Source of the DNA: a virus
Lineage: Duplodnaviria > Caudoviricetes
IMG/VR virus record: IMGVR_UViG_3300020045_002275
Coordinates: 1 to 46,187 of that record
DNA: 46,187 bases
Reading direction: 5' to 3' (one strand)
Shown: positions 1,333 through 45,073 of the stretch, in pieces
Numbering within the stretch: the first letter of the stretch is position 1
Layout of the letters: every line of letters starts with the position of its first letter
Notes under the pieces: model-generated
What the model saw: the letters and a program-made list of their open reading frames with translations, nothing else
Databases searched by the model: none
Told to the model about the DNA's origin: nothing
Position numbers and translations under genes: made by a program

Positions 1333-1348
1333 TAAAATTAGGTAAAAC

Positions 1349-2779: not shown

Positions 2780-2784
2780 ATTAA

Positions 2785-3480
2785 ATGGCAAATAACATAG
2801 TAATTGATTCAACTTGAGTCAGGGATAGATTTAATCTACAATATAACAATATATTCAGTAATCAAGCTCCTGGTCTTGTAGATTATGAAATTTCTATGTA
2901 TTTGACTATGGCTCATATTGAGATAATTGATGAATATTCTGATAATGTAGACTTATTTGAAAAGAATAGGTCTTTACTTACAGCCTATTTAATAAATGAC
3001 AAAATAACTGGAGAGATAGCCACTACTCAAGATAGGGGTATAGACTACCAAGTGTTTGAATTCTCTGAGAACTATTGGAAGATAATGAAAGAGTATGCTA
3101 TTACGGACTCAAATCCAACAGGCATTCCTATTAAGCCAATAACGTATGATGGATTCAATACAATGTCCGTCAATCCATTTAAAAAACCTAATGGACTAAA
3201 AGGTTGGAGATTAGATATAAATGCGGATGGTGATTCTGCGAGAGACGTAAAGATACTATTTAAGAAAATAGGTGACACTGATTATATTAAAACATATGAT
3301 GTAGTGTATCTTGTTACTCCAAAGTCATTTGATCTAGAATCTGATATTATACCAAACTCGTTAGATAACAATCCATTCCTTACAGAAAAAATCATAAATC
3401 GCGCTGTGGAATTAGCTACTCGTGATTACAAACCCTCTGATTTACAGACTCAAATGGTAGTAAATAAACGATCAGAATAA
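2785..3480 (+). CDS. tail ring (head-tail connector) protein, 231 aa in code 4
   Basis: ATG 2785 is in frame with the 2896 ORF through TGA 2815. The extension restores FNLQYNNIFSNQAPGLVDYEISMYLT, typical of crAss ring proteins. C-terminus is EKIINRAVELA. Confidence 0.75.
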
Positions 3481-3481
3481 T

Positions 3482-4336
3482 ATGCAAGAAACAGTTTATT
3501 ATATATATAAAATAACCAACAATATAAATGGTATGTTATATATAGGTCAACACTGCTTTAATACTAAAAAAGATTATTATTTTGCACATGGAATATCTCA
3601 TACTGGAAAAATATATGGAGGTCATCATACGTATTTTTGTAGAGCTGTAATAAAGCATGGATTTGAAAATTTTTCAAAAGAAATAATTGAATACTGTAAT
3701 AAGGATAATATTGATGAAAGAGAAATCTTTTATATAAAACATTACAATTCCAAAAATCCAGATGTTGGATATAATTTAACAGATGGTGGCGGTTCGTTAT
3801 CTGGATATAAAATGACAGACGAACACAAAGCTAAAATAGGATTAACCAACAGTATGTGCTCCGAAGAAACTAGAGAGAAACTTAGACTTGCAAATATAGG
3901 TAAAAGACACACTCCAGAATCTATAGAAAAAATGAGACTAATTAAAACTGGGATTAGGCGCTCGGGGGATGCAAAGAGAAAAATTTCAGAGTCAAATAAA
4001 GGTAGAGTTGTATCTATGGAAACTAGAAGAAAAATAGGTGATGCAAATAAAATATCTCTTCTTGGTAAAAAACTATCAGATGAAGTAAAAGAAAAATTAC
4101 GCATATCAAGTACGGGTAGAATTAAAAGTTCTGAAACCAGATTGAAATTATCTATTGCAAATATAGGTAAGAAAGCATCGGATGATGCTAAATTAAAAAT
4201 GTCAATTGCAAAACTTGGCAAAAAACAATCTGAAGAAACAAAATTAAAAAGATCAATAGCTTTAAGAGAATCTTGAGCTAGAAGAAAAGAAAACACATTA
4301 CAATCACAAGTTCAGATAAATAAAAGGTCTGAATAA
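3482..4336 (+). mobile_element. free-standing GIY-YIG homing endonuclease with NUMOD3-like repeats (ends at 4276 if TGA is a stop)
   Basis: YIYKITNNINGMLYIGQ, EREIFYI and GYNLTDGG motifs, followed by many S(E/D)ET(R/K)xKxS-type repeats. The frame continues past TGA 4274 to TAA 4334-4336. Confidence 0.9.
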
Positions 4337-4362
4337 TATTAATTTAATACCATAAATAAACA

Positions 4363-5283
4363 ATGGCTGTTTTTTCAACCAATAGTGTTAGACATTTATT
4401 TGTCGCTAACACTTCGACAGGCGGAGCCGCTGGTCAGTATGTAGGTGCTGTAAAAACTGTAGATAATGAATTGTATCTAAAGTTTATCAATGCGAATACT
4501 CAAACAGTAGCGACCCCGTTGATTCCTATTTCAAAAATTAAAAGTGTATCTAGTAAGGCTTATGCTGCAAAAGTATTGCGCTCTGACACCATTACTATTA
4601 ATACTGCTGTTGTTGGCCAGACCTACAATATTCGTTTTGTATTCCGTAATTGGGGTAGCGGTTCTTCCGAGAATCAATATTTCAAATACAGTGGAACATA
4701 CAAATGTAAAACTGGTGATACAACCACAACTATTGCAACTGCATTAACAGCACTTGCTGTTACAAACTTTGCTCGCGAGGCAACTCCTCTTTTGACTATT
4801 ACATCTAGTGGTGCAGTTATTACTGTTACTGAAATTGCTCAACCATTTGTTAAGGGCAAACAGCAAGGTCGTCCATTGAACTATTATTTCCAATTTGTTC
4901 CTATTACTGATTCTACTGGATCTGAAAATGTTGCATGAGGAACCGTAGCTTCTGTAGCTGTTGGATATGCAGGTCAAGGTACTGCTAATTTAGCTGCTGA
5001 CCAAGAATACTTCTATCTAGGAGAACGTGGAGATAAATATCGTCAAGTTGGATTTCCATATACTTTTGATACTACTTATTTAGTAGATGCATCAAAACAA
5101 TATGATACAATTGATATTACTTATAGTTCTGCTGATTCTGGTGCTGTTGGTGTAGAAAATGATTTACGCGTTATAACTATTCTTTGCGCTAATGGAACTT
5201 CTTCTGCTATTGCAAAACTAATCGCTAGTGACGTAAATACCGCAACTGGACTTACAACTATTCCTGTCGCTCCTGCGGCATAA
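4363..5283 (+). CDS. auxiliary capsid (decoration) protein, 306 aa in code 4
   Basis: MAVFSTNSVRHLFVA N-terminus. The frame is open beyond TGA 4936 and encodes ADQEYFYLGERGDKYRQVGFP, a crAss auxiliary-capsid-like motif. Codon bias looks like that of a highly expressed gene, and a terminator follows. Confidence 0.8.
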
Positions 5284-5290
5284 TAACCTA

Positions 5291-5323
5291 AAGGGTGCGG
5301 TAAACCACCGTGCCCTTTTTTTT
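5291..5323 (+). terminator. intrinsic terminator
   Basis: AAGGGTGCGGT-aaacc-ACCGTGCCCTT followed by a T run, directly after TAA 5283. Confidence 0.9.
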
Positions 5324-5333
5324 GTTAGACATC

Positions 5334-5711
5334 ATGGAAGATAAACAAAAACTTCTGTTAGGTATTACAAACTGTCTGCTTGGTTCATACATTCGCATTA
5401 GAGAAATTCACTGAAACACGCGCAATCAAGCAACACATAACTTAACAAATACGCTTCTGCCGGAAATAATTGACTATATAGATTCTATCATAGAGTTAAT
5501 GTCTGGCGTAATAGAACGTCCTGGATACGATATACTAAAACCTATCATTCCATCAACGAAAGAACTTAAACCAATCTTACAAGCATTGGTTACTAAAATA
5601 GAGACATGCCAAGAATGTCTATCAGATCCTTCATTTAGGGGTATAAATAAAACATTAGATGATTTAATAGCGGACCTTAACCGCTGGTGTTACCTCGCAG
5701 ATAACTTCTAG
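5334..5711 (+). CDS. ferritin/Dps-like four-helix protein, 125 aa in code 4
   Basis: REIH[TGA]NTRNQATHNL gives the Dps-family HW motif when TGA 5412 is Trp. It also has D..IE and a C-terminal YL. Stop is TAG. Confidence 0.7.
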
Positions 5712-5744
5712 TAAATCAATACATTAATAAAATAATAAAAATAT

Positions 5745-6029
5745 ATGGCACTTAGAAATAGACAAGACGGTAAAGTTGAAATTTTTGTAGGAACTCAAAA
5801 AGTAGATGGACTATCTAAAAACGTAATAGAGTTTGACGAATTAGCTCTATCAGCTAACGTCACAACTGCAATAGCAGCAGCAACTACTAAACAAGCATTA
5901 CTTACGTCACTTGGAATACCTGGACCTTACGCGGATGACGCAGCAGCTAAAGCAGCAACACCAGCAGTACCTGTTGGTGGAGTTTACTATATTACAACTA
6001 CATTAAAATTAGCCACCGTAATGGCATAA
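5745..6029 (+). CDS. small virion fibre or decoration-like protein
   Basis: Ala-rich 94-aa ORF with an A-rich leader. The C-terminal YADDAAA...VGGVYY motif resembles short phage fibres. Confidence 0.6.
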   Translation: MALRNRQDGKVEIFVGTQKVDGLSKNVIEFDELALSANVTTAIAAATTKQALLTSLGIPGPYADDAAAKAATPAVPVGGVYYITTTLKLATVMA

Positions 6030-6033
6030 TATT

Positions 6034-8157
6034 ATGGGAGGATATATAAACGGAAAAGTTGAGATTTGGTGCGGAGATTCGCCTCCGTTAAATTTGAATA
6101 CATTATGGCAAAAGAGAATTACAAATAATGGTATTCAATCTACTGTGATGTATGAATATAATTCCAATCTTAATATATGACAAGTTCATAATTTGGAAAA
6201 TATTGCCCAGAATACTGGCACGTCAGAATCCATGTTAATGTCACAGAAATCTATATCCGATTTATTTTCAAATATAAATACTGATATCTATAAAAAATCT
6301 ACAACATTGGATTCCGATCAATCAATATCGTATGCAGACAATCCAACGTCTTACCAATATACTCCACTATCAATAAAATTAAATAAGAAATATATTGGAG
6401 ATGTGTCTACAAATAAAAGATATCTTGCTTGTGGGTTTGATGATTTTAGATCTTCAGATGTATCATGAGTTTCACCATTATTTGAAAAATACGGATTTTC
6501 CGCAACTTTCAATAGAATAAACTCTTCACTTCCAACAAAAAATAATATACTGGACATTTATGATGTATTTTCAAAAAATCATGAATTTGGAGATCACTCA
6601 ATATTGCACGAAATGTTTATATATTATTCACCACTATGAAATGGACAGGACCCAGCATCACCTGAGGGGGCTCAAGTTGCTTTCCCGACCAACAATGATT
6701 TTCGACAAGATCGTGGTGATGGAAAAAATATATTTGGAAAAATACTTACAGATACAATTATAATAGGTTATTTGCAACCTGACTTTGGAGAAAAAACGTG
6801 ACAGGAATTATCTGATGCTGATTGCCAGTATTTAAGGAATTGGTATTCTGTTATTAAAAACGTTGATATAATAAATTATCTTGACTTACTTTCTAACGAG
6901 ATAATTGGGACAACTGGAAGTTCTATTGATAGTTGAAGTGGAACGGAGTATTCTGGTGGTATTTTCACTGGTTGTAAGACATCTTGCAATCATGAGATAT
7001 GAGAAAGAATTTGTTTAATACAAAAACATTACTTTAAAAAATACTTAGGAATAAACCAAGATATAACTGAATGGAGTCTTCCTGGCTCTAAAAATGCTTA
7101 TTTATACCTTGAGGATAATGGCCTATATTACTATGATCGTGAAAAAACTCAGCCAGCAAATGATTCTGCGGAATTTACATCTAGCATCATCTTAGACACT
7201 AACGGAGATGGAATAAATAGGTCGTGGAGATTTGTTTTAAGAAATAATGGGTATAGAGGATTCCACGACTGTTTGTATCCAGGGAGGCATGATGGAAATG
7301 TTTTTTCTGAGATGTCAAATCAATATATAATAAATTCGTCTTATTCAAGATTAGATGGGCTTGTATATCCCACTAAAAGAGATATAGATCAAAGTTATCC
7401 AATTAATTATAGCGAAGAGTATTTTGATGGCGTTGATGATGGCTTAAAGAAAATGTATGAAGATACTAGTATTAATGGGTTTAGGCACTCTATAGAGTCA
7501 ATTAGACAATCATGCGCTAGGGGCATTATTGCTGGTGGATTATGAGATAGTAGCGACTCGTATAGTGATCAAATATACTGAGAGAATATACTGAGGTTTT
7601 GTAGACTTGCAAACATAGAAGTTGTATCTAAAGCTGAGGCGTATGATATCGCATTTAATCGGCATGTATTGAATGGTAATTTATTATATAATCCAAACTT
7701 TGATAATATTGTAGAAAAAGTAATTCCAAACGCTAGTAATATACCAACAAATCCAGATGGATGGGATGGAAGTTGCTCTGTTCTAGATGACCAAAGCTCT
7801 CCCAATGGTATAAATAAAATATTGGTTTGTACTGGGGCTGCATACATGAAACACTTTGGAGTTCCAACTGGGAATCTAACACTTACTTTGTATGCGAGTG
7901 GCAATGGATATCTACAGATTTTTAAAATAAGAAATAAGCAGAATTCATATGAAGTGCCAGATGTCTCTGAAAACATTCACTATATGGAGGTTTCAAATCT
8001 TGAATTCCAAGAGTCTGTTATAAATTTCAATATTAAAAACGAGGATGCGATTACAAGTAGTAAATCTTTTGATGGTCTAGATAATAAAATCTGCGGAATA
8101 TATATATATGTTGGAGGGAATGTAAATATAACACAACCTAAATTAATACTAAACTAA
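6034..8157 (+). CDS. 707-aa protein with polysaccharide deacetylase (NodB/CE4)-like domain, probably virion-associated
   Basis: One frame with no TAA or TAG, and TGA at 6178, 6466, 6637, 6799, 6934, 7000, 7543 and 7579. Motifs: CGFDDF, LFEKYGFSATF, HEFGDHSILH. Confidence 0.75.
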
Positions 8158-8723
8158 TGGCATTAGAAAATAAAAAATTAAGTACATACGATGATTTACT
8201 ATCATCAAATATAGATACAACGACTAAACTTGTGGTGCTAACTGGAGCTACAAAAGTAAATGCTAATCTTCCAGTAACAAGCTTTGTTGAAGACTCATTG
8301 ACATCAAATAGCGTTGTTAAACCATTGTCAGCGGCTAAAGGTAAATCACTTCAAGATACTAAAGCTCCTATTGCTAACCCGACATTTACTGGAACTGTAA
8401 ATGGTATAACTAAAGCTATGGTTGGGCTAGGTAATGTAGATAATACTAGTGACGCAGGCAAACCTATATCAACAGCCACTCAGAATGCTTTAGATCTAAA
8501 ACTTAATGCAAGTTCATTTAATGATTTTATCACACTGCCTGTTTCTGGTGATATTGGAAAATTACTTACTGCAAATGACGATGGTACTGCATCATGAGGA
8601 AATACTATTAATACTCCATTAATTACAAACCTTCAGACATTTGCGGATAATACTGCCGCAGCAGCACTCGAAACCGGCACTATATATAAAACATCTACCG
8701 GTGTTTTAATGATTAAATACTAA
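8157..8723 (+). CDS. tail fibre-like protein, 188 aa in code 4
   Basis: DSLTSNSVVKPLSAAKGKSL and KAMVGLGNVDNTSDAGKPISTATQNALDLK are fibre motifs. The frame is read through TGA 8595 to TAA 8721. Confidence 0.8.
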
Positions 8724-8771
8724 CTATTTTATTATCAATCTATATATTTTTTGAAAAAACACTCAAAAATG

Positions 8772-8803
8772 TTTGGTAGATTGAATAATTTAAATTACCT
8801 TTG
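8772..8803 (+). promoter_or_regulatory. Bacteroidota primary-sigma promoter
   Basis: TTTG (8772-8775), 20-nt spacer, TACCTTTG (8796-8803). This matches the -33/-7 TTTG/TAnnTTTG consensus and is conserved in phage B. Confidence 0.85.
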
Positions 8804-8842
8804 CCTCAATTTATAATTTAAACGTAAATTATAGGTTGGGGC
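8803..8842 (+). promoter_or_regulatory. 18-bp stem-loop overlapping the transcription start region
   Basis: GCCTCAATTTATAATTTA-AACG-TAAATTATAGGTTGGGGC, with three G-U pairs. A near-identical copy lies at 44962-45001. Confidence 0.7.
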
Positions 8843-8878
8843 ATTGTTGTAAATGAGTATTAATTTAAAATAAAATAC

Positions 8879-9832
8879 ATGACTAAAGAAGAGGTTATTG
8901 AGGTATTTAAAGAAAAGAGTTATCTATTAGAAATGGGAGCTTTTAAGATTTCAAAACAATTAAAGACCGATGTAAATATCATCAGAGAAGCACGAGCTAT
9001 TGTTCGTAAAAACATTAAAGAGCTTGGAACTACATATCATCCAAAAGAAGTGGCATTTAAACATGACAAACAAAAGATTTTATTCTTAGATATCGAGACA
9101 GCTCCACTTCGTGCATTTGTGTGGTCAAGATGGAAGCAAAATGTTGGTTTGAGTCAGACTATTTCTGAGTGGTTTATGATTTCTTGGAGTTGTAAATGGT
9201 TGAATGATGATTATGTTTATTCAGATGTATTAAGTCCAAGAGAAGCTGTTGGTGAAGATGATAAGCGTATATGTAATTCATTATGGTATATCCTTAATGA
9301 AGCCGATACCGTAGTCACTCATAATGGAATTTCATTTGACCATAAAAAGATTAATACTAGATTCTTGTTGAATGATTTAATGCCAACAAAACCATTTAGA
9401 ATTATTGATACTCTTAGAGTTATTAAAGATAATTTTGCATTTAGTTCAAATAAATTAGATAATTTATTAATTCAATTTAATCTTCCAAGAAAATTACACA
9501 CAAACTTTGAATTATGGAGTGATTGTCTTGCTGGGAGTGTTGAAGCCTTAACCGAGATGGAAACTTATAATAAGAATGATGTAGTCACTCTTGAAAAAGC
9601 TTTTGACAAACTTAAACCTTGGATTAAGAATTTTCCAAATTATGTATTGTATAATGAACTGTCAGATGCAATGGCGTGTCCAACATGTGGTGACGTTCAT
9701 TTAAATGATATTGGATATTACACTACTGGTGTGTCTAAATACAAAATGTATAGATGTAGTAATTGCAAATCTATATCAAAATTAAGAAAGTCTGAGAAGA
9801 CCAAGGTTTTACTTACAAACAATATAAGATAA
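8879..9832 (+). CDS. RNase H-like DEDD 3'-5' exonuclease with C-terminal Zn ribbon
   Basis: FLDIET, HNGISFD, IDTL and YNKNDV motifs, plus CPTC...CSNC. All 8 Trp codons are TGG. Confidence 0.85.
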   Translation: MTKEEVIEVFKEKSYLLEMGAFKISKQLKTDVNIIREARAIVRKNIKELGTTYHPKEVAFKHDKQKILFLDIETAPLRAFVWSRWKQNVGLSQTISEWFMISWSCKWLNDDYVYSDVLSPREAVGEDDKRICNSLWYILNEADTVVTHNGISFDHKKINTRFLLNDLMPTKPFRIIDTLRVIKDNFAFSSNKLDNLLIQFNLPRKLHTNFELWSDCLAGSVEALTEMETYNKNDVVTLEKAFDKLKPWIKNFPNYVLYNELSDAMACPTCGDVHLNDIGYYTTGVSKYKMYRCSNCKSISKLRKSEKTKVLLTNNIR

Positions 9833-10602
9833 TGAGAAGCTATCGCGAACTTGTGTTTAGTGTGCTTGATTCTGTTAAAATATTTAGCGATGATTCGGTT
9901 TGAGAAACCGACTATATTGCTAGCGTTTTAAATAAGTATCGAGGACTACTATTCACACAAAAATATAAAGGCAAGAAGGTAGAAATACCTTTTGCCTACT
10001 ATCAGAGATTGAATGTATATTTTGATACCACATATGGTGATGGACAAATATATCAATCAGTTAAACAACTTCCAAACATCCTTGACACTACAAATTTATG
10101 GCAATATACATTTGTTAGTAATGATGGAATGCGAAGTGATAATTTAAATTTTATTAATCCACAAAGATTCAAAAATGTTGGATATAATAAATGATTAAGA
10201 AGTCAAGTCTGCATTACAATAGACTTAGATAATCATATGTATGCTAAAAGTCCTGGAAGTAATATTAGTAATGCTGTACAATTCGTAGGAGAACCCGATG
10301 TAATTACATCTGAGACTAAATATACATTGATATCAGAAACTGGCTTAAACCAACTCGCAGCAGAGAATCTAGTAGACTCATATGTTTATTATGATACTAT
10401 ACTTGATAATCCAATAGAAGGATATAGATTTAATGACGATAATACATTAGATGTATTGGACTTTATATTCCCTTGTGAAGAATCTTTAATTCAACCGATC
10501 ATAGATTTATGTATCAAAGAAATTGCAGCTATCAATGGAATTCCTAGAGATGCCGCCAATAACGCATCAGACGATTTAAGTTTACCTAAACAACAAAATT
10601 AA
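9832..10602 (+). CDS. tail ring protein, 256 aa in code 4
   Basis: MRSYRELVFSVLD..SDDS N-terminus and LDFIFPCEESLIQPII C-terminus. TGA at 9901 and 10192. Orthologue at 43194-43961. Confidence 0.75.
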
Positions 10603-11180
10603 TGGAGCAGACATTCGAGGAGTATTTAAAAGAAGCCAAGAATGTTCATGGCGATAGAAAGCATAAAATAACTGGAAGTCAGAATACAATAGCTGGCTTC
10701 CATTATTACAGAAAGATTAGACCAAAGGAAACTAAATTTACTCTTAAAGATAAAGAATATCTCTCCATTATAAGAGAAATGAATAACTTAGTTGCTGATT
10801 ATCTTGTTGAGAATAAGTCAATTAGCCTTCCATCTGGATTTGGAAAATTAGAGATTGTTAAGTACGAAACTAAATCGTGAATAGATGACGATGGTAAATT
10901 TATATCAAGCAAGATAGTTGATATGCATAATACATTTAAGTTATGGCATGAAGACGAAGAAGCTAGATTAAATAAAACCAAGGTTAGATTTGATGAAGAT
11001 TACATATTTAGAATCAAATATCCACAAAAAGGTAGGATGTATAAATATAATGGATATTTCTCAATGCAATTTAATAGAGAATTAAGGCATAAACTTTCCA
11101 GGTCAATTAAGAATGATAATTATGATACATATATAAAACCATCTAGAAGCGCATGGCTAAAGCAAAATGGACGAACCTAA
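10602..11180 (+). CDS. HU/IHF-like DNA-binding protein, 192 aa in code 4
   Basis: SISLPSGFGKLEI motif. TGA 10878 aligns with Trp in the uninterrupted 192-aa orthologue at 42610-43188. Confidence 0.75.
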
Positions 11181-11872
11181 GAATCGTCGCAGATAAAATA
11201 TTAAGAGATCCAATATTCATTGGATTAAATTTTGAAACTATCGTTGATTATTTCATAGACTTTATAACTATTGTTGGAGTCCCGGAATTATTTGACGAGA
11301 AGTTTACTAATGCAGAAATTCCAATTACGAACTATAGGGCTATATTACCTGATGATTTCTTGGAGGAGATTACAGTGCAAATAGACCACAAAGTTGCTAG
11401 AACAGCTACTGATACTTATTTTGGAAATTACCAAGAGTATCAGGACACTAATCCTAACGAATACTTTCCAGATAAGCGTTCAGAGCCATCCTATAAAATT
11501 AAAGGTGGTTATATCTACCTGTCCAAGAAGGAAGGTAATTTGCTTTTAAAATATAAATGTATAGCAACTGAAACCGATGTAACATCTGATGATTATGGAA
11601 TTCCATTAATGCCAGACGATCCAGTATTTATTCTTGCTCTACAATCATATATAGAAGTTCAATTCTTAAAGATGTTATTTAGAGCTGGTAAAATTAATAA
11701 CCAAGTCTTACAGATGGCGCAACAAGATTACGCATGGAATGTAGGACGATACGAGACTCATAGTAGACGTTTAACTTACGGTGATATGGAAACATTATCT
11801 CGTCAGTTTAAATCAATCCTGACACGCAATAACGATTTTAAAACACGTTTTAAACACTTGGGTTCTAGGTAG
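11153..11872 (+). CDS. tail ring / tubular protein (P22 gp4-like adaptor class)
   Basis: NYRAILPDDF, YKIKGGYIY and QQDYAWNVG motifs. Lies directly upstream of the muzzle gene. Confidence 0.75.
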   Translation: MAKAKWTNLRIVADKILRDPIFIGLNFETIVDYFIDFITIVGVPELFDEKFTNAEIPITNYRAILPDDFLEEITVQIDHKVARTATDTYFGNYQEYQDTNPNEYFPDKRSEPSYKIKGGYIYLSKKEGNLLLKYKCIATETDVTSDDYGIPLMPDDPVFILALQSYIEVQFLKMLFRAGKINNQVLQMAQQDYAWNVGRYETHSRRLTYGDMETLSRQFKSILTRNNDFKTRFKHLGSR

Positions 11873-11874
11873 TT

Positions 11875-12249
11875 ATGCAAATCAAATCAACCACATACAA
11901 GGTGAAAGGGATGAATCGTGATTTGAGCTATTCCGCATTCAATCCTGAGTTTTCATGACATAATAAAAATATACGACTTACAGCAAGAGATAGTAATGAC
12001 TTATTGAGCGTTACAAACGAGAAGGGTAATTTATCCATCTCATTCAATGACTTAACGCCAGAAAGAATATATACATACTCATATGCATCTGCATTTGAAG
12101 ATTACATAGGTGAGATAATAAATGTATCATACACATATCAATCCTCATTTGGGAGATATGTGTACGAGTTGAGTGATGGTCCAGCAGCTCCTTCATATAC
12201 ATACATCACTGGATTTACAAATTATATTAACGAATTAATAGAAATTTAA
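11875..12249 (+). CDS. N-terminal fragment of the muzzle/tail stabilisation protein fused to a degenerate Tyr-rich repeat tail
   Basis: KGMNRDLSYSAFNPEFS[W]HNKNIRLTARDSNDLLSVTNEKG resembles the usual N-terminus of crAss muzzle proteins. TGA at 11956, stop TAA. Confidence 0.7.
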
Positions 12250-12251
12250 AA

Positions 12252-12824
12252 ATGGCATTTACATACTCTGGATTTAAAAAATCCTTAAATTTAGTAATAA
12301 CAAAAACGGCACATCCAACCAACGTTGAGACCGTAATAAATGAAAATGGTCAAGGAGAGTTCATCTTTGACGGAACTACATATCCACAATTAACTGATGA
12401 TGAATTTTCTAAATTAGTTTCAAATGGCACTGATGGAACGTGAGAAATTAGAAAGAATGCTTTTATAGCATATATTGCTAATAAATATTCACTTGAACCA
12501 GACTTGCTATATAGTATAACTTGGTCAGATTCAAGAATTCCAGTTGACGAGATATTAATAACTATAGCTCAGCAGAGTGGAAGCACAGAATATCACATAC
12601 AAGGAAGTACGTCATCATCAATGCAGGAGCAAGTAGATGTTGTTGTCAAAGACTATATAAGTAACAATGAATATGCTATGAGTTTCTTTGGATCTGGATT
12701 TGATTCTGTCATAATGGACGTAAATGACTCTATAAAGAACTTGGTATTAGTATCAATATCTCCTGAATATGGAACATATGCGCATTATTCAGTAAATATA
12801 GTTGGCGCAATTATACCGGTATAA
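12252..12824 (+). CDS. hypothetical protein inserted between the two muzzle gene parts, 190 aa in code 4
   Basis: ORFs 12252 and 12504 join through TGA 12441. The N-terminal half is homologous to 40865-41452. Confidence 0.7.
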
Positions 12825-12825
12825 T

Positions 12826-16938: not shown

Positions 16939-16945
16939 AAATAAG

Positions 16946-16986
16946 ATAACCTATATATATTTATTATGTATGGGTTATTTTTTTTA
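16946..16986 (+). terminator. intrinsic terminator
   Basis: ATAACCTATATATA...TATGTATGGGTTAT followed by a T run. The phage B copy shows compensatory changes. Confidence 0.8.
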
Positions 16987-16993
16987 TTATATG

Positions 16994-17025
16994 CTTGTAT
17001 AATCCAAATACTTATTGTAACTTTG
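16994..17025 (+). promoter_or_regulatory. Bacteroidota-type promoter for the cargo operon
   Basis: CTTG, 20-nt spacer, TAACTTTG (17018-17025). Conserved at 36885-36916. Confidence 0.8.
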
Positions 17026-17084
17026 CAGAAATTTATAAAATTTGACGTAAAAATCAATTAAAACAATATAATAAATGCTTAATT

Positions 17085-18818: not shown

Positions 18819-18819
18819 T

Positions 18820-27891: not shown

Positions 27892-27898
27892 ATTTTAA

Positions 27899-33094: not shown

Positions 33095-33099
33095 AATTA

Positions 33100-34968
33100 T
33101 TATTGATTGTTATACAAATTCGTACTGCTTATTTTTCTATTTTCAGTCCAAGAATTTATATTCATTCCTGAGTTTTGAGTAGCAAATGTTGGAAACATTT
33201 CAGATAATGCAGTTGCGTTTTGTATTTGCGATATTAATTTAAGATATTCTTTAACCTCCGTACTATTTAGTTGTGATGGAGTAAATGATATGTTATTTGG
33301 CATTTCATACCGGCTTAAGTCAACACCGTAGTTTCTTGCATCAATAGTATAGTTTCCGGATAAATCTTTTTGAAATGTTGATTTATTTTTTTCTGGATCC
33401 ATTATTGCACCACGTATAGACTTGCCAGCTTCTGATAAATATTTTAATCTATTTTCCATCTCTGGATTTTGGAATATAGAACCATCGGCTTTGTATGCAT
33501 TCCCATCTCCAAACCTTATTTCAACACCGGAACCCATTGGGGCGTATGTTATTACTGGATTTCCATAAGTTTTTTTGAGTTCATTGAATTTATTAATATC
33601 CAATTCCGTAGATCCACTCTTAGGGAGTGTAACTGATCCAGACTGTATTGCCTGGTAAACACTTTTTGATATATTGTCATCCCCGGTAGCTATAGTATAT
33701 ACTGGACTAACTGATTTTAATTTCTCCTTCTCGGCCTTTATTACATTATCAACTAATTCATTGTATTGTATTTTTGTCATCTTACCAGTTGAACTCAAAT
33801 TAAATTTTATTCCATTTTTTTTAGCAAGTGACATAATTTCCATTTTAGCTTCATCCCTCTTTTTATTTATATTTGATGGACTTAATTTTGGATCAACATA
33901 CCAGACATCTCTATTAGTTCCACCAGTTGAAGTTTTTAGTTGACCATATTTATCAACAGATGCAACTTTATCAACCTTTTCGCCCTTTGCGTATTTGCTT
34001 AAATTTTCTAATTTATCGTAAGCATCTTTATCTGATATGTCTGGGGCATAGTTCATTGGAAATTTTGGAATTATTGGTGGCGGAGTATTTTTTGGAGTCT
34101 CTAATGATTTTTGCCATAAATGCATTCCAGCCTGATCTGTTACATTACCAAATTGTTTAGTTCCAATAGCATTATAAGCTGCCTGTGATGTTGAATCCCA
34201 TAACTCATTAATAGCCTTATCGTTGCCTTTAAACTTATCATAAACGCCAAACTCCCTCATAGTACTATCAATAGTTCCGTGAATCATATTGGTCATTTTA
34301 TCAACTACTGCTGGGTCATATCCTTCACGCTTCATGGCGTTAGCCGCTTGGTCTGGTGTAGCACCACTTTGAATAGCTGTGAAATATAGAAAACTTAACT
34401 TAGGCATTTTCTTTAACTCAGGAACATCCTGATTAATTGTCTTAGATAATTGCTCAAGCTTTTTAGCTGCGGTTGAATATAATTGATTACCACTAACCCC
34501 ATCATAGTTAAAGGCTGTTGAGCTTTTAAGTCCTTCAGTTAATGAAATGTCGTTTGGATTAATTGTAGCTCTAAACGTTGGGTCTTGTAATTGTATTTTC
34601 CTCAATTCCTCGGCACGTTCTTGACGAATCTTTAATTGATTTTGTAATGGAACTACTTGATTTGTATATAAAGATTTAACCTCCATTAAACCTCTACGTC
34701 TACCAGAATCAATAAATCCTTTAGTTGCCAATTGGTCAGCAGCTTCTTTAGTTTTAGTTATAAAGTTTTGCTGAATATCATAAGCTGCCTTATCTTTAAC
34801 TGGGTCTATTCCCAACAATGATAAGCCACCTTGTTGTTCTTGTTGAGCATATTCTTCTTGCAGTTGGTCATGTTGCGCCCTTAATTGTTGTGAGGGCGCT
34901 CACATTTCTTGAATGCTCAAAGGTGTAAATTGAGCGTAATTCATTGTATCGTAAGCACTTATCGGCAT
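33100..34968 (-). CDS. virion cargo protein, 622 aa in code 4
   Basis: MPISAYD start at 34968 with TGA 34900. The N-terminus is nearly identical to that of the 18820 gene. Confidence 0.75.
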
Positions 34969-34972
34969 CTTA

Positions 34973-36826
34973 TTATTTTTTATATGTTATGTTACCTTGA
35001 GCATCTGTCTTATATCCGTACATAGCTTGACCAGTTTTACTAGCCCAATTCTCCCTACCTATATCACCAACATTATTTGCTGCATTTAATATTGCTTGTC
35101 TTGCAGCGTTACGCTTGGCAGCTCTATTACGAGCATTAGCATCCATCTCTTGCATTTGTAATTGCAAGTTAGTTTGTTGTGCTGCATTTTGTGCTGCAAC
35201 ATTTTGAGCTTCTATACCAGCATTAAATTGAGTTGCTTGATTCTTACGACCATAATTAATGTCTTGAGCTTTCATATAAGCTTCGCCTACAGCATTTTGT
35301 TGTTGTTGATTTATACCACTTAATCCAGCCATTGCTATCGCTCTATTACCACCTGCATTATTAATCATTTGGTCTCTAGTTCCAGCATATGTAGCATTCA
35401 TTTTATTATTCATCCATTCAGTATCTATTGGCCGGTAATCCATTCTGGCAGTTACGCGTTCAGGAGCAACTCTACCATATTTAACTACTTCTGGTTTTTC
35501 AAACATATCGCTAATACCCATTGCCATATTGGCAGCAACTGGTGCGTATCTTGAAAAGTCAGTAGATTGTATTTCTTCTTGTTGATATGGATTTCTTTCT
35601 CTAAATGCAGCATATTCTTTAAGGGCTACATTTATATCTTTTACATTTGATAACGGATTAACTTTCCAATCTACACCTTGTAATTTCATACTTCTAGCAT
35701 AAGCATTTTGGTCGATTCCAACTAGTGGGGTATTTAATTTAGTCAATGGCATTCCCTCAGCACCTATATTGGAACCTTGCAATGTTGGATTTTGATAATG
35801 AGTTTGGTCAATGAACCCACCATTAGCATATCCTTGAGCTAACATATTAGCATTTGGTTGTCCTTCCATTGGAATACCTTTTTGTGGTTGTATTTGCTCT
35901 TTTAAACCTTCTTGAGCAGCAGTTAATTTAGCTAAGTGTGCCTTGACTCCATTCTTGCTTATTGGGTCATTAGGTCTATCCTTAGCTTCTCTATTTAAAT
36001 ATTTAGAAGCATCGGCAAATGTCTTACCATTTAATCCTTTAGGTAGTTTAAAGTCTTTGGATATTTGTGGATTAACTTTAAGTCTATCAGAAAATATGTA
36101 ATCTTCATGTTTAGTTTCACCCTCTTCAACTAGATTGGGTTGACCGTTAGCTCCAGTACCCTGTAAGATTCCTCCGTTTGGGTTGCTTTGATGTGAACCC
36201 CCCGATTCAAAGGAAGTTAATTGCGATGGCATCTGTCCACCATAAGCATAAGCGTTTAAATCTCCACCGAATGCGTTAAAATTTTCCATTGATTGTCGTA
36301 AGTCTTGTTGATTAAATTGTCTATTCTTAGCTTGTAAGTTATTGGTTCATTGTCGCTCGGCTTGCTCAGCTTTATTTTGCTTAGCTTCGTTGCCAAAAAT
36401 ACCTGTAGCTATTGGCACCAACCCAGCTAATGCGCCTCATGGTCCAGCCACTTGCATGCCAGCCATAGCTGCACTGGCAGCATCTCCAGCAATAGCTCCA
36501 AATCCTTTCTGCTGAGTATCCACATTTACATTGGTATTTAATATATCACTACGAGTCATGTCTTGAGTACCAACAACTTCTTTGCCAATACCTGAAGTAT
36601 CGAAGTCTTTAATAGTACTATTAGCTAACCCCATAATTCCAGGAGCAGCTCCTAAAGCCCCAGATAATCCAGCACCTACATTGCCAGCCGCAAATTGTCC
36701 AGCAGCAGATGATTTGAAGTCCGTGGGTAATCCACCTAGTTTATATAGATTTCCACCTTTTGCAAATATAGCTGATTGATTATATTCTCGTGGAACTACA
36801 AACTTATTTAATTTCTTTTTTGCCAT
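34973..36826 (-). CDS. virion cargo / ejection protein, 617 aa in code 4
   Basis: TGA at 36437 (AGP[W]GA) and 36347. Orthologue of 17085-18818. Confidence 0.8.
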
Positions 36827-36884
36827 AATTAAGCATTTATATTGTTGTTTTAATTGATTTCTACATTAATTTTTAAAATTCTTG

Positions 36885-36916
36885 CAAAGTTACAAATAGT
36901 TTTTTGATTATACAAT
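36885..36916 (-). promoter_or_regulatory. Bacteroidota-type promoter
   Basis: On the minus strand: ATTG, 20-nt spacer, TAACTTTG. Confidence 0.75.
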
Positions 36917-36935
36917 AGTAAATACCATTTATAAC

Positions 36936-36977
36936 AAAAAAAGCAACCTATACATAAATAAATATATATAGGTTGCT
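36936..36977 (-). terminator. intrinsic terminator
   Basis: On the minus strand: AGCAACCTATATATA...TATGTATAGGTTGCT followed by a T run, just after the muzzle stop. Confidence 0.85.
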
Positions 36978-36982
36978 CTACT

Positions 36983-39900
36983 TTAAATTGTATATGTTAC
37001 AGTCAAATCCTGCATATCAAATTTTTTATTAATATTGATGTCTGTTTTATTATGAGATAATTTTAATTTAGCTCATGTTGAACGTATTCTATTTAAAGAA
37101 TTTCTAGTATCAATCATAACTAGTCCAGTACTATTATCAAGCGTTTTTGATTGCCTTGGTAGTTGAACCCTATTTACATTAAACTTTCGTTTAAGAGAAT
37201 TCAAATACTGTCTATCATTTAGTTCTCCATACTGATACCAGTTTGCTATCTCAAGACTATTCCAATCTATGAACTGATCGTTTAATCTATATTCAAGCGT
37301 ATTAAATACCTTATCTGATAGTGGCTCTGGATTAACTAAATACTCAACACTAAATGGTTTTTGAACTCCATAAAACATATTGTAATCACCCTTGTTGTGT
37401 AATCATACAATGGACTTATTTACATCTGACTCATCCTCTGCTTCTGAATATCCTATTGATATAAAGCTATCTCAGACGTTTTTCATTTGTGGAACATTTA
37501 TGTAATCAAAGAATGACACAAATGATCCGAGTGTTTCAGAATAATTTAAACAATCAGTATCATCATGAATATATAAATCATTATTTACTCTATCATAAGA
37601 TAAATTAAAATCTCTTCCGACTGCGTTTTCATTAAACCAGGATTTAAATCCAAGTGATAATCCAAGATCTTTAATGCCATCTCCAATAGATATTAAGGAT
37701 TTATTTATATAATCTACGAAATAAATGCCCTGCTTTCCTTCGATTATAGACCACTTATTGGATGCTCCATATTGATTTGATAAATATCTATACTCAGGAA
37801 CTTTATATCCATTTGTAAGCTCCACCGAGACGCCATCAGAGGCTTGCTGTTGAACTCTTTCATTAAATAATAATCTAGCTACTCCCTTTGGTTGAAATGC
37901 GTATAAATCGTTATTAAATATGTTCAATGAAGATACTTCTCCATAAGTTCCATCCAGGTCTATTGAATTAAGCATATTTAAATTAGTCCAAGAATCGTTT
38001 ATAGAGTCAGACACTTTAGTCGATGTTCAAACTATAGTGTTTTTATAGTTGGTCGTGTTAAACAACTCTGGATCTAATATATTATAATTGAAGTAATTAT
38101 TTTTTTGAGAATATATGTTATTAAGTAGACCATAATTTGATTGAGTCATTAAAGAGCTATCGGTGTTATATCTATTAACGTCAGATCTTCCATCTAAATT
38201 TACAAAAGATTCGCATATAAACGATATAACTTCATTGTGTTGCGGTATTTGATTTATATCATTTGGGAATACTCTAAGTAAATCAAATCTCTGAATGTAA
38301 GTATCTCCATCTGTAAAATCAATAACAACTCCAGGTGTTAGCTTCTTGGCTGGTCCACATGGTATTCAATTGTTACTAAATAATGCATCATCGGTATTTC
38401 CACCATATTTAGAATAGTTTGGATTTGCTGGATCTGAAATGACATCAGAATACATATCAAATATTGGTAATGAGTTGTATGATCTATAGTTGTTTCCAAC
38501 ACTATTTAACGGTATTACATCGCACGAATACTTATCAGTTGAAGTTCTATAATATGGTTTATCAAATAATTCTGGACTTACATATCCATCATAATAATCA
38601 ATCGTATTTTCAAGCCTTGGCATTGTAGAGAAATATCCACCATTTTTTTTGAATGAAAATATAGCATGACTTGCCGTGTTATACTTCATTGATAATCCAT
38701 AGTTTGCAAAATCAGTATAATTAACGCTGCCAACTACAGATTTTAAATTCTTATAACTACCACCAGGATATGATTTATCTACATTTTTTGAATATAAAAT
38801 AGACCCACTACTATCTTCTTGATTTGTAGAATAGAATATACTTAAATCATTTATAAGTACATTCGGACTATTTATGTTTAATTCATATCTATATGAATTA
38901 TCGGATAAATTACTATTTATTCCGAAATAAACATTAGATGATCTCAATAGCTTGGTAAACTGAATATCCTTATCGCTATCATCGTAGTGCTCTGGGGTTC
39001 ACATAGGGAAGTTGAGTTTTGATTGAGCACCATTTATAGTTGCAGTTGATAGGATGCCTTTTTTGTAATCCCAACCATCTGTAAGCGTAGAATTATCATA
39101 GTTCTCTAATACTGTAGTTGTATTTTTAATATCTAATTCAACTCCGCTATCAATTGAAAAATTAAAATTTAATCCTGTTGGAAATGAAAATCCATATAGT
39201 CCAACCTTTTTAACCGAATTAATATATGAATTTATCGAGTCATAATTGTGAGTTATTTCAGGACTTCAGAAATTAACTGTGTTTTTATCAATAAACAAAA
39301 GATCTCTATCGAAATTACCATTTAATGCACCACCAGAAACATTTGATGGATCAGGTGAGTATATGTCATGAAATTCAACAGCATCATAATTTGCCATATT
39401 CTCTATGTGTATATTCGGAGCGTCAGGAGATTGTCTATTAAAATTATTATTTATTTTTAATAGATCAAAATGACAATACCTACCGTTATAACTAACCGCT
39501 GGATATGTTTGCTTTGTTTCCGTCTCGGTCCTAAATAGATAGTCTGGATATGAGAAATATGAAGTTCTTACATTGCCGGAGAGTCTATTTTTCATTGTAG
39601 CCAATGTATTGCTCAATATACCCTGAGCTATAATAGTTCTATCTGAGTTTTTCAGTGGAACCATTACTGGCCTAACTTTTACAAACTTAGAGTTTAAATT
39701 GTTTAATTGATTGTATAACGAACTATTTACTGTATATACGCCTTTTATTTTATTTATTAATACGTAGTTTAAATCTTCAGAATATCTAATTGAATACCTT
39801 TTATCAACAGTCTTATCAATACCAAGTCATATTGGTGTTGATCATTTGCCATTTGAATATTGGCCCTGTATACCAAGCCTGTATGTTTCATCAAACTTAA

Positions 39901-40858
39901 AATGCCTTATCTTATCACTATCGCTAAGTGATTTTGGCCTATATGGATATGATGTATCACTACTTGACTGAATACTCTCTAATACAGAATCTGCATCTTC
40001 TACCCACGAAAAATTATCACTAGAATTTGGATATATTAAATTTAAAGATGATGGAATTGCATCGTTTTTAATTAATTTTATATTTCCAAGAAATAAAGTG
40101 TTATTCTTCTGCGACATACACCGAGGAACTAATTCCTCTCCACCAATATATAGCAATAAATCAGAAGACACTATTGAACCGTAATTACCATTGTCGATGA
40201 ACATTAGACTGTTGGAAGTACCAATTTTCAAATCAATCAAACTCTTTACTTCTGGTGTTGTATCTATAGACGTTCTATGTATTGAGTATATTCTTACATA
40301 TTCAAACTTATTTTCAATTCCGTTTAATTCAATTTTAAATGTATTATTTACAATCTCATCAACCTTCCCGGCTCTATCTACTGGCGATACATAATTTATT
40401 GGTGTTATATAAAATATGTTTGACTCCGCCCCATTCTTATTGAAGTAAGTAAATGCATATTGTATAACTCCAGATTTAAATGAACCACCACCATATTGCT
40501 TTGTTATATTGACAGATTCGTTTAATTCTAACTCTTGTACAAAATCAAATCTGGATGAACCTGAGTTGTTATAAACTGACTCTGCAATATTTATTACGCG
40601 AGGTTGATTTAATCCATCTATCCAATATACTTTCTGGATTGATTCATTTTCATAAAATGGAAGGGTCTGTATTTTGTTGTTATAATTAAAATTAAGATTT
40701 CCTTCAAATAACATTGCTGTATTTGATATTTTTGAAACATCATCTGGCCTATCAATCCTATATATTCTGTCGGTTGATTCATCATGCGTAAATAATACTA
40801 AGAAATTATTAAGGACACAAGATCCAAGTGTTTTACCTCTTATTTTTATTGTTGGCAT
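36983..40858 (-). CDS. muzzle / tail stabilisation protein main body, 1291 aa in code 4
   Basis: One frame with 9 TGAs (39842, 39827, 39266, 38999, 38366, 38027, 37472, 37403, 37073). Colinear with 12826-16938. Confidence 0.85.
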
Positions 40859-40864
40859 AGTTTA

Positions 40865-41452
40865 TTAATATGGTAATGGATATTGAATTGGGCCTATGTT
40901 AAGATCGGAAAAATTCACATAATACATATCATTTCTTAAATAACTTTTTGTTAATTCAGTTATGTTTATTGAATACTGATCAATATCTACGGCAGTAGAT
41001 GTGGATCCCGCATCTAACGTAATGATATTAGAACTATGAGAACCTTCAGGTATCTCCATAACATAAGTTATATTATCAAATGGATCTTCTATTGTGATTG
41101 CTAGATCTTGTAATGCGATAGATGGATATATTGTTGCTTGATATTGTTTATCTGCTGGGTTTACGAGTCTAACAACTTGACCTTTTGCGTATTTTCTTGC
41201 AATATAAGCTGAATCTCCAAATGTTTGACCGAGACTATATTCAGATTCAACATGAAGTAGTCAAGTATCAAGTCTTATATCAAAGTCATAGTCCGACATC
41301 TTTTGCATATCATCTTCTGTAATAGCAGAAAATGTTCCAAATGCACTCTTTCCGTCAAGAACTAAATATGGGTCAGAGATTGATCCATCATTGCCAGTCC
41401 TTTTTATAGTGAGATTTAAGGTTCTCAATTTACCTGTTTTTACAAATGCCAT
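40865..41452 (-). CDS. hypothetical protein inserted between the muzzle gene parts, 195 aa in code 4
   Basis: Joined through TGA 41261. MAFVKTGKLRTLNLTIK is homologous to MAFTYSGFKKSLNLVIT. Confidence 0.7.
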
Positions 41453-41453
41453 A

Positions 41454-41912
41454 TTATATGCTTTCTATTAATGTGTCTGAGTAGCTTGAGAATTGTAATT
41501 GATAACTATATGCTAGAGGCTCTAATACATCCTGATATCCAGAAAAAGATAATGAATAATTGTATGCTAGAGGCTCTAATACATCCTGATATCCAGAAAA
41601 AGATAATGAATAATTGTATGTTGGAGGCTCTAATGTATCTTGATATCCAGAAAATTGTAATTGATAACTATATGTTGGAGGCTCAAGAACATCAGAATAT
41701 CCACCAAATAATAAATGATAACTATAAACCACATTTGAAAAGAAGCTTATTGATGTATTACCTCTTTCATTTGTAATACTTAGAAGGTCATTGCCATCTC
41801 TAGCGGTAAGTCGTATGTTCTTATTGCTCCAAGAATATTCAGGATTAAAGGATGAATATGAATCATCCTTTCTCATTCCTTTTATTTTATAGACTGATTG
41901 CTTAATTTGCAT
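41454..41912 (-). CDS. muzzle N-terminal fragment fused to five 18-aa repeats
   Basis: KGMRKDDSYSSFNPEYSWSNKNIRLTARDGNDLLSITNERG followed by the repeats. Confidence 0.75.
   Translation of the reverse strand: MQIKQSVYKIKGMRKDDSYSSFNPEYSWSNKNIRLTARDGNDLLSITNERGNTSISFFSNVVYSYHLLFGGYSDVLEPPTYSYQLQFSGYQDTLEPPTYNYSLSFSGYQDVLEPLAYNYSLSFSGYQDVLEPLAYSYQLQFSSYSDTLIESI
41457..41726 (-). repeat. 54-nt coding tandem repeat, 5 units
   Basis: Units: YSYHLLFGGYSDVLEPPT, YSYQLQFSGYQDTLEPPT, YNYSLSFSGYQDVLEPLA twice, YSYQLQFSSYSDTLIESI. TGCTAGAGGC recurs at 41511 and 41565. Confidence 0.95.
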
Positions 41913-41917
41913 GATAT

Positions 41918-42637
41918 TTAACGATTACCAAGGTTTTTGAATCGTGCCCTAAACTCATTATTGCGCGTCAGGATTGATTTGAACTGACGAGACAATGATT
42001 CCATGTCGCCGTAAGTTAAGCGTCTACTATGGGTCTCATACCGCCCCACATTTCATGCATAATCTTGTTGTGCTAATTGCAAGACCTGGCCATTAATTTT
42101 ACCAGCCCTAAATAGCATCTTCAGAAATTGAACCTCTATGTATGATTGCAATGCAAGTATAAATACCGGATCATCTGGCATTAGTGGAATTCCATAATCT
42201 TCAGATGTTTCATCAGTCTCTGTAGCTATGCACTTGTATTTCAAAAGTAAATTACCCTCTTTCTTAGATAGATATACATATCCACCTTTGATTTTATATG
42301 AAGGTTCAGTGCGTTTATCTGGAAAGTATTCGTTAGGGTTGGTATCTTGATATTCCTCGTAGTTTCCAAAATAAGTATCAGTTGCTGTCCTAGCGATCTT
42401 ATGATCAACCTGAACTGTAATCTCCTCTAAAAAATCATCCGGTAGTGTAGCTCTGTAATTTACTATTGGAATTTCTGCATTAGTAAACTTTTCATCGAAT
42501 AATTCAGGAACCCCAACGATAGTTATAAAGTCAATAAAGTAATCAATAACAGTTTCAAAATTTAACCCAATAAATATTGGATCTCTTAATATCTTATCTG
42601 CGACGACTCTTAGATTCGTCCATTTCGTTTTAGCCAT
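41918..42637 (-). CDS. tail ring / tubular protein, 239 aa in code 4
   Basis: Reading TGA 42053 as Trp gives exactly the length and C-terminus of orthologue 11153-11872. Confidence 0.85.
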
Positions 42638-43188
42638 GAGCTTTTAGGTGGTTTTAAATATGTATCATAATTACCAGCATGTATAGCTAGTTTTAATTTT
42701 TGCTGAAGTTGTCTATTGAATTTTATCGAATAGTATCCGTTGTACTTATACGTTCTACCGTATTGTGGATAGTTAAATCTAAAGACAAATTCATCATCGT
42801 ACCTAACAAGTGTCTTGTTTATCCTAGACTCCTCATCTTCATACCACAACCTAATAGTGCTATTCATATCAATTTTTTTTGTTGATATAAATCTACCGCT
42901 TTCGTCTATCCATGATTTAGTTTCGTATTTAACAACCTCTATCTTTCCAAATCCATCAGGTAATCTTATTGATTTATTTTCAATAAGGTAATCTGCAATA
43001 AGATTATTCATTTCCCTTATTATAGATAGATACTCCTTGTCTTTAAGCACAAATTCTTTTTCTTTTGGACGTATTTTTCTATAATAACCAAAGCCAGATA
43101 TCGTGTTCTGACTTCTAGTTATTTTATGTTTTCTATTACCATGTACATTTTGGACTTCTTTTGCGTAGTCTTCAAATGATTGCTCCAT
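42610..43188 (-). CDS. HU/IHF-like DNA-binding protein
   Basis: SIRLPDGFGKIEV motif. Orthologue of 10602-11180. Confidence 0.75.
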   Translation of the reverse strand: MEQSFEDYAKEVQNVHGNRKHKITRSQNTISGFGYYRKIRPKEKEFVLKDKEYLSIIREMNNLIADYLIENKSIRLPDGFGKIEVVKYETKSWIDESGRFISTKKIDMNSTIRLWYEDEESRINKTLVRYDDEFVFRFNYPQYGRTYKYNGYYSIKFNRQLQQKLKLAIHAGNYDTYLKPPKSSWLKRNGRI

Positions 43189-43193
43189 TAATT

Positions 43194-43961
43194 TTATTGT
43201 TTTGGTAGACTAATATCATCAGTCGCATTATTGGTTACATCCCTGTGGATTCCATTGATTGCGGCAATTTCTTTGACACACAAATCTATAATTGGCTGAA
43301 TTAACGACTCTTCACATGGAAATGTAAAGTCTAATACATCTAGTGTATCATTATCATTAAATTTATATCCATCTATTGGATTATCCAATATAGTGTAATA
43401 ATATATACATGAATCCGAAAAACCATCTGATACCAATTGATACAATATATCTTCAGATATAAGTGAATATTCTAATTCAGGTGTTGTTGTGTTTGTTTCT
43501 CCTATTAATGGAATTGAGTTATTGGAATTTATCCCAAGATTTTTAGCATACATTTTATTATCTAAGTCTATTGTTACATAAACTTGGTTTCTAATTCATT
43601 TATTATATCCAATTGTTTTAAATCTTTGTGGATTAATAAAATTCAAATTATCACTTTTCATTCCATCGTTACTAACAAATGTATATTGTCATAGATTTGT
43701 TACATCAAGTATGTTTGGAAGTTGTTTTATTGATTGATATATTTCACCATCTTTGTATGACGTATCGAAATATACATTCAATCTTTGATAGTAGGCAAAA
43801 GGTATTTCTACCTTTTTGCCTTTATATTTTTGTGTGAATAGTAACGAACGCATCTTGTTCGCAATATAGATAACATGCTCTACTTCAAGCAAAGCATCAT
43901 CACTTATTGTCTTAGTACTGTCAAGAATTGCATACACAATTTCCCTGTAGGTGTGTGCCAT
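43194..43961 (-). CDS. tail ring protein, 255 aa in code 4
   Basis: TGA at 43689 and 43596. Orthologue of 9832-10602. Confidence 0.75.
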
Positions 43962-43962
43962 T

Positions 43963-44925: not shown

Positions 44926-44961
44926 GTATTTTATTTTAAATTAATACTCATTTACAACAAA

Positions 44962-45031
44962 GCCTCAACCTATAATTTACGTTTAAATTATAAATTGAGG
45001 CAAAGGTAATATAAATAATTGGAATATCAAA
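44962..45031 (-). promoter_or_regulatory. Bacteroidota-type promoter plus conserved 18-bp stem-loop
   Basis: On the minus strand: TTTG, 19-nt spacer, TACCTTTG, overlapping GCCTCAATTTATAATTTA-AACG-TAAATTATAGGTTGAGGC. Confidence 0.8.
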
Positions 45032-45073
45032 ACTTTTTATGTATTATTTTTAGAAATATGTTACAATTAATAT

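Follow-up and report, generated by a model that had tools for sequence, protein, structure and literature searches.

In-frame TGA at tryptophan positions in the late genes of two crAss-like phages very likely joined in one chimeric contig

We analysed a stretch of 46,187 nucleotides (the window) that constitutes the whole of IMG/VR virus record IMGVR_UViG_3300020045_002275, a linear record with a completeness estimate of 46%. It holds two crAss-like late (virion) gene blocks, segment A (1922..24520, + strand) and segment B (24511..46187, − strand), the latter from a second, related phage with the same gene order as A. Our reading, to which we assign a probability of about 85%, is that the contig is a chimera of two crAss-like phages, and that the tryptophan TGA codons of their late genes are read by a phage tRNA(UCA), predicted upstream of the large terminase subunit gene (TerL) and charged by the host tryptophanyl-tRNA synthetase (TrpRS). 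The recoding itself is of a kind known in Crassvirales; the lineage and a lead on its tRNA are the added elements.

We counted 33 in-frame TGA codons in A and 24 in B, beside 97 TGG codons in the same 30 genes, when gene starts were corrected to those of homologues, in agreement with the numbers given in a preliminary description of this DNA; with the longest upstream starts, the counts were 35 and 24. Under table 11, open reading frames (ORFs) of at least 100 amino acids account for 76.6% of the window; when TGA is read as sense, the share is 97.8%, and the comparison of coding densities proposed in that description thus came out in favour of recoding. The alternative readings of TAG or TAA as sense were rejected, since they gave a cover of 76.3% and 87.2%, respectively, and TAG and TAA do not interrupt the genes. 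For the non-recoded sister G018, the cover changed from 80.3% to 81.1% under table 4. It had also been claimed that read-through restores full genes ending only in TAA or TAG. Indeed, the genes abut one another and match full-length homologues, but their endings were not counted as evidence, because genes called with TGA as sense can end only in this way. A clustering of TGA toward the 5' end was not seen in the late genes of the window (median relative position 0.39 versus 0.46, p = 0.11).

The orthologues of A and B were then aligned with TGA masked as X. The 10 pairs gave 5 columns with TGA in A and TGG in B (10878, 11956, 15901, 16726 and 21827), 9 with TGA in B and TGG in A, 8 with TGA in both and 20 with TGG in both; the other TGAs of the window face gaps or different residues, mostly in poorly aligned stretches. 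All nine swaps previously listed with TGA in B were recovered, the earlier numbers being the low coordinate of each minus-strand codon and therefore 2 below ours. Five of the six listed with TGA in A were likewise found, while the sixth, at 13699, lies one column off the tryptophan of B, yet falls on TGG in both long relatives. The identical lengths noted for two orthologue pairs (192/192 and 239/239 amino acids) were correct. Since the two segments are very likely two phages artificially joined, these swaps compare two genomes and not paralogues in one. When the TGA columns of the window were compared with 12 related contigs, 86 well-aligned cells, which are not independent of one another, held 43 TGG, 41 TGA, one Tyr and one Phe. 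Against five standard-code RefSeq Steigviridae, Trp was the commonest residue (37 of 91 cells), ahead of Phe (12), Leu (9), His (7), Tyr (6), Asn (5) and Gly (3). With 84 of the 86 lineage cells being TGG or TGA, the residue at the window TGAs is, on these alignments, tryptophan, as the preliminary description had it. Glycine (table 25) was rejected, as Gly occupies only 3 of the 91 reference cells, and so was selenocysteine, in view of the 7/5 stems of the tRNAs described below and of Cys lying outside the seven commonest residues at TGA columns.

A UCA-anticodon tRNA had been predicted to lie outside the window, together with a suggested search for TrpRS and release factor 1 (RF1). No tRNA was detected in the window, and hence in the record, by ARAGORN or Rfam; the evidence on the tRNA comes from relatives. 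A terminase search gave 40 loci, of which 19 entered a TerL tree (left out were one copy of L042, 5 sequences at 55-56% and 15 at 43%). The 15 sequences with TGA in TerL formed one group (98/99), and the 4 outside it had no TGA and no UCA tRNA in the DNA scanned. A tRNA(UCA) was present in all seven recoded loci with at least 5 kb upstream of TerL, those of L047 and L048 being identical; the other 8 recoded loci have less than 2.9 kb upstream, short of the tRNA(UCA) location. All seven tRNAs have a 7-bp acceptor stem and G73, the latter being, along with the CCA anticodon, a bacterial Trp determinant according to the accessible part of PMC9976931. The "SeC" label that ARAGORN attaches to them reflects the anticodon only. 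The prediction for A and B is thus supported through their relatives.

The relatives include a complete genome of 90.8 kb (G012) and a closed genome of ~92.5 kb formed by G001 together with G011, which overlaps both ends of G001 by 127 identical nt; the latter genome shows 41-95% identity to the matched proteins of A. TrpRS and RF1 were not detected: none of five related records, covering both complete genomes, had an RF-1 or tRNA-synt_1b match, with controls positive in 10 and 14 of 14. The sister G018 carries 11 tRNAs, none with UCA, and searches of G001-G007, as records without the region upstream of TerL, yielded one weak non-UCA match only. A relaxed ARAGORN run allowing introns returned dozens of matches per 20 kb and was discarded as noise. 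A degenerate tRNA-like element lies between early genes (L003 1500-1573, equivalent to G002 61015-61088; Rfam 34.5 bits, uncalled by ARAGORN), and the more distant relative L109 encodes a CUA-anticodon tRNA (4337-4409), with several genes lengthening on TAG read-through, which points to amber recoding beside the opal lineage.

Two of the seven lineage tRNAs (L042 and L073) are 94 nt long, with a long arm looping TCCAA, and the tRNA of the closest complete relative has a second hairpin displaying CCA; the other five are short-armed. We scanned for long-arm tRNAs(UCA) without requiring the TCCAA motif and obtained 50 loci, 27 of them called as tRNA(UCA), with TCCAA in 26 of the 27 and CCA in all 23 distinct arms. 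Among 21 aligned two-armed tRNAs, CCA was invariant, and each of the 4 arm pairs changed on both sides in 5-13 sequences, indicating covariation. A published screen had measured the activity of 31 phage tRNAs(UCA) in an E. coli extract to which no synthetase was added (PMC12636597, consulted here in its accessible portions). We classed these by eye as 13 two-armed, 14 short-armed and 4 doubtful or intron-like, the last being dropped (all at background), and set an activity cut-off of 25,000 units (background 5,403; wild type 69,124). On these single representative values from related sequences, UGA suppression was seen in 13 of 13 two-armed versus 2 of 14 short-arm tRNAs (Fisher p = 6e-6), and the split persisted after near-copies were collapsed (p = 2e-4). 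The table of that paper gives 11 tRNAs above half of wild type on our re-count, versus 9 stated in its text. Mass spectrometry there showed Trp inserted by 13 of 13 phage tRNAs(UCA) in E. coli extract, a set named in a figure only and not to be equated with the two-armed 13. The assay used an extract from a strain designed to suppress UAG, and its values may therefore not reflect competition with a host release factor 2 (RF2).

We tentatively propose, at somewhat less than even odds, that the lineage represents an independent, non-gut opal recoding switched by a single two-armed tRNA, which would combine a UGA-reading loop with a CCA hairpin for the host TrpRS and thereby need no phage synthetase or release factor. 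If this is true, the published screen holds the first functional support for such a tRNA, unnoticed there; no paper describing a second CCA arm was found in a literature search that lacked most subscription journals. The hairpin might instead serve as bait for anticodon nucleases of the host, have a stabilising role or be left over from an arm duplication, a possibility to which we give about one chance in three. It would accommodate the five short-armed tRNAs of the lineage, whose phages also lack TrpRS where checked (G012 and G015), and the two short-arm tRNAs that work well in the screen, but it sits poorly with an invariant CCA in 21 of 21 arms above a covarying stem and with the activity split obtained without added synthetase. 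The anticodon arm of the short-arm tRNAs (L039, L045, L047 and L050) aligns to the second arm of L042, L073 and L125, and both loops end in AAC, a hint that the two-armed form may have arisen by arm duplication or insertion. The tRNA type of A was not assignable by similarity, as A is nearer to G001 (two-armed) in one stretch (88.5%) and nearer to G005 in another (90.9%), the portal of G005 being nearest that of a short-arm carrier (89.3% versus 86.2%).

The structure of the contig is very likely artificial, with foreign DNA, phage A and inverted phage B joined in one chimera. Positions 1..1921 (+ strand) carry, besides three small genes, the 5' ~191 codons of a papain-like (C1) peptidase gene, are not crAss-like and contain no in-frame TGA; the homology of relatives to the window begins at 1922. 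At junction 1 (1922..1936), the peptidase is joined in frame to a crAss cargo gene at a common ELISC-type stretch, and the resulting 476-aa ORF is a fusion, stand-alone peptidase homologues being ~265 aa, many with PF00112. The natural start of the cargo gene is present in G001 and G002, and among the matches listed, contigs from three runs diverge from the window at 1922 into this start. At junction 2 (24511..24520), A (+) meets B (−) at a 10-nt microhomology, TGGTATTAAT, which cuts the giant gene of A and the polymerase-like gene of B, both truncated there. Again among the matches listed, a contig from run X2 passes 24516 into the homologous position of B, 28917, instead of following the window's own join, and no metagenome piece spans either junction. 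The paired proteins of A and B share 26-91% identity, and both segments hold the same virion block.

That the head-to-head arrangement of A and B is a real rearranged genome seems to us quite unlikely. Junction 1 is in frame, and recombination in vivo could have made the joins, the 10-nt overlap falling below the usual assembly word sizes, which are longer than 10 nt. However, both junctions cut conserved genes, other contigs run naturally past both, and the resulting molecule would be without capsid, terminase and replication genes. The crAss-type major capsid protein, portal and terminase, absent from the window fragment, are present in close relatives. Furthermore, multiple displacement amplification typically yields chimeras whose inverted joints are primed on 2-21 nt, though mostly within one molecule (PMC1855051, accessible part).

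There is also a slim chance that A and B manage without a suppressor tRNA, and that the host tRNA-Trp(CCA) reads UGA once a phage protein weakens RF2. The window holds no tRNA, as this would require, and T follows in-frame TGA in 7 of 57 cases versus 28 of 97 for TGG (p = 0.018), which fits leaky contexts. However, the seven informative relatives all carry tRNA(UCA), and the context bias was set aside as evidence: in relatives it is weak (p = 0.077), and avoidance of GATC, which occurs 72 times where 140 are expected, confounds it, the same drop being present after CGA. The GATC deficit is in itself suggestive of restriction or methylation avoidance.

Recoding in the relatives is concentrated in late genes, and the window holds late genes only. 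TGA ends 1 of 43, 2 of 39 and 4 of 50 ORFs in the early blocks of three relatives, which hold 125, 94 and 134 TGG; one of these terminal TGAs coincides with the stop of two homologues, and the exceptions are a homing endonuclease with 5 TGA (G002) and a few small ambiguous ORFs. Since early genes stop at TGA and late genes carry TGA at Trp columns, one genome uses TGA both ways. We consider it very unlikely that TGA means Trp in the host as well (table 4) and that the phages merely follow suit. No gene of A or B was seen to end in TGA, a partly circular observation, and no host was identified; against this, in relatives TGA terminates some early genes and is nearly absent from early coding sequence, the relatives have a tRNA(UCA) of their own, and sister lineages use no TGA in TerL. 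A natively recoded host of either kind, table 4 or 25, does not fit the TGA stops of the relatives' early genes, nor does table 25 fit Gly in 3 of 91 cells. Finally, we give practically no chance to an origin of the TGAs in sequencing error or in gene decay by nonsense mutation: the contig is structurally unreliable at its two junctions, but consensus error, named earlier as a refutation, is excluded because TGA recurs in these columns in other assemblies (41 of 86 cells), and the TGAs sit at Trp columns in genes that TAG and TAA leave uninterrupted.

In the mechanism that we favour, the host would use the standard code, and a phage tRNA(UCA), predicted upstream of TerL in the missing part of each genome, would read UGA as Trp after charging by the host TrpRS. 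Early genes would be made first, while the tRNA accumulates and competes with RF2; full-length virion proteins would presumably appear only thereafter, and recoding would in this way act as a gate on late genes. Several points weigh against our reading. With no tRNA in the window or record, there is no direct link of the tRNA to A or B, and according to the accessible part of Borges et al. (bioRxiv 10.1101/2021.08.26.457843), a suppressor is detectable in only 35% of TGA-recoded phage genomes. Trp fills only 41% of the reference cells at TGA columns, although the figure for TGG columns, with the same five phages at the same distance, is itself no higher than 55% (71 of 129). No host was found by a pattern search of GTDB, where none of 29 matches lay in a genome encoding a capsid relative, and expression timing is inferred from gene position only.

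Both segments contain Pfam crAss families (rings, auxiliary capsid, muzzle, cargo and IHF-like), and tblastn against crAss001 agrees, identifying them as the conserved Crassvirales virion block. On the + strand of A, the ring protein 3/4 gene (2785..3480; PF25710) has a TGA at 2815, in a column where, of 9 relatives, 6 have TGG and 3 have TGA. It is followed by a GIY-YIG/NUMOD3 homing endonuclease (3482..4336; one TGA) that is missing from a related contig, which skips 871 nt there; its C-terminal residues NKRSE are those of the preceding ring gene, and its insertion appears to have duplicated the end of that gene. The auxiliary capsid gene (4363..5283; PF25650) has a TGA at 4936, where 7 of 7 relatives and 5 of 5 RefSeq phages have TGG. 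A 707-aa gene (6034..8157) with 8 TGA and 6 TGG has no Pfam or PHROG match and resembles relatives at its N-terminus only. Next come the RNase H-like exonuclease (8879..9832; PF13482, phrog_403; no TGA, 8 TGG) and the ring 2, IHF-like and ring 1 genes (9832..11872; TGA at 9901, 10192 and 10878). The muzzle gene (11875..16938; PF25731; 11 TGA in total) has its short N-terminal piece separated from the main part by an inserted, unrelated gene. This piece is a separate ORF (11875-12824 in A, 40865-41912 in B) followed by an unrelated gene of ~190 aa in A, B and G001, unlike in G002, whose muzzle is one 1886-aa frame; in B, it ends in 54-nt tandem repeats (41442-41711). Cargo 1, cargo 2 and the giant ejection/RNA-polymerase-associated gene (17085..24520; PF25725, PF25712, phrog_32390) close the segment, the last truncated at junction 2; the copy of this giant gene in B encodes 1731 aa.

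On the − strand of B lie the muzzle gene (36983..40858; PF25731; 9 TGA, 8 TGG) and the exonuclease gene (43963..44925; no TGA, 9 TGG). For the giant ejection and polymerase-like genes of both segments (20528-33094), matches were obtained in the distant G012 (42-46%), barely in G002, which has a single 4879-aa frame at this position, and not at all in the closer G001; the pattern of a match to G012 and none to G001 suggests module exchange. In the late-block exonucleases, none of the 8 and none of the 9 tryptophans is encoded by TGA (uncorrected binomial values of 0.025 and 0.016), with 0 of 5, 1 of 4 and 0 of 8 in relatives, and the major capsid genes of G001 and G002 are likewise without TGA; production of these proteins may need to come earlier, or to run faster, than suppression would permit. 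G003/G011 has a terminase exceeding those of relatives by ~330 aa, with an intein-like insert (L035 1-3093), and several capsid genes (L022, L023) are split around homing endonucleases.

The best GenBank phage matches of the window proteins, including the B muzzle, are Steigviridae at 30-40% identity, and the lineage has genomes of ~91-93 kb. In a ring-1 tree, unrooted and with no outgroup from other families, it formed a branch separate from the Steigviridae references (100/100). Among the matches listed, short pieces 90-100% alike came from groundwater, aquifer and landfill runs and one unlabelled metagenome run, and no RNA dataset was found among the listed runs holding the searched stretch. 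These observations add a non-gut, Steigviridae-like lineage to the Zeta group as carriers of TGA-to-Trp recoding. The recoding as such is mainly of consequence for annotation: most virion genes of the window are fragmented under table 11, and the contig should be split. The weightier lead lies in the relatives: the accessible part of Borges et al. leaves open how suppressor tRNAs are charged without a phage synthetase, and this question becomes testable through the conserved CCA hairpin together with the difference in activity seen in the published screen.

The occurrence of stop-codon reassignment in some Crassvirales, cited in the preliminary description, is established: several publications describe TGA-to-Trp recoding of late genes in crAss-like phages (PMC7886860; bioRxiv 10.1101/2021.08.26.457843; PMC12386605; PMC10136315; accessible parts). 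The crAss phages of Yutin et al. 2021 (PMC7886860) and phage Lera (PMC12386605), as far as these sources are accessible, share with our lineage TGA for Trp in late genes and a suppressor tRNA(UCA). However, all 39 TGA|w genomes in Supplementary Data 1 of Yutin et al. belong to the Zeta group and measure 158-177 kb, unlike the smaller groundwater, aquifer and landfill lineage, which likely has a separate origin; non-Zeta code-4 crAss phages may be among those given in the supplements of the Borges preprint. The Agate and Jade code-4 phages of that preprint, in its accessible part, likewise have recoded late genes, standard replication genes and a recoded early-block homing endonuclease, as in G002, but Jade carries TrpRS and RF1 beside its tRNA, in contrast to the five related records here. 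The five Steigviridae (crAss001, IAS, cr111_1, cr112_1 and cr126_1) share the late gene order as well as the best protein matches, but at 25-47% identity, with no TGA at aligned columns and some late genes ending in TGA. The tRNAs(UCA) of PMC12636597 include the same two-armed family, and some IMG/VR matches look identical by eye (L181 and tRNAUCA-3), but the accessible text does not mention the second arm, and the tRNA of the window lineage was not recognised among those tested. Lastly, tRNA-Sec and allo-tRNAs (PMC7609411 and PMC5389517, accessible parts) share the UCA anticodon, a long variable arm and G73, whereas the lineage tRNAs have 7-bp acceptor and 5-bp T stems, not the 8/4, 9/3 or 13-bp acceptor domain, and their codon columns are Trp, not Cys or Ser.

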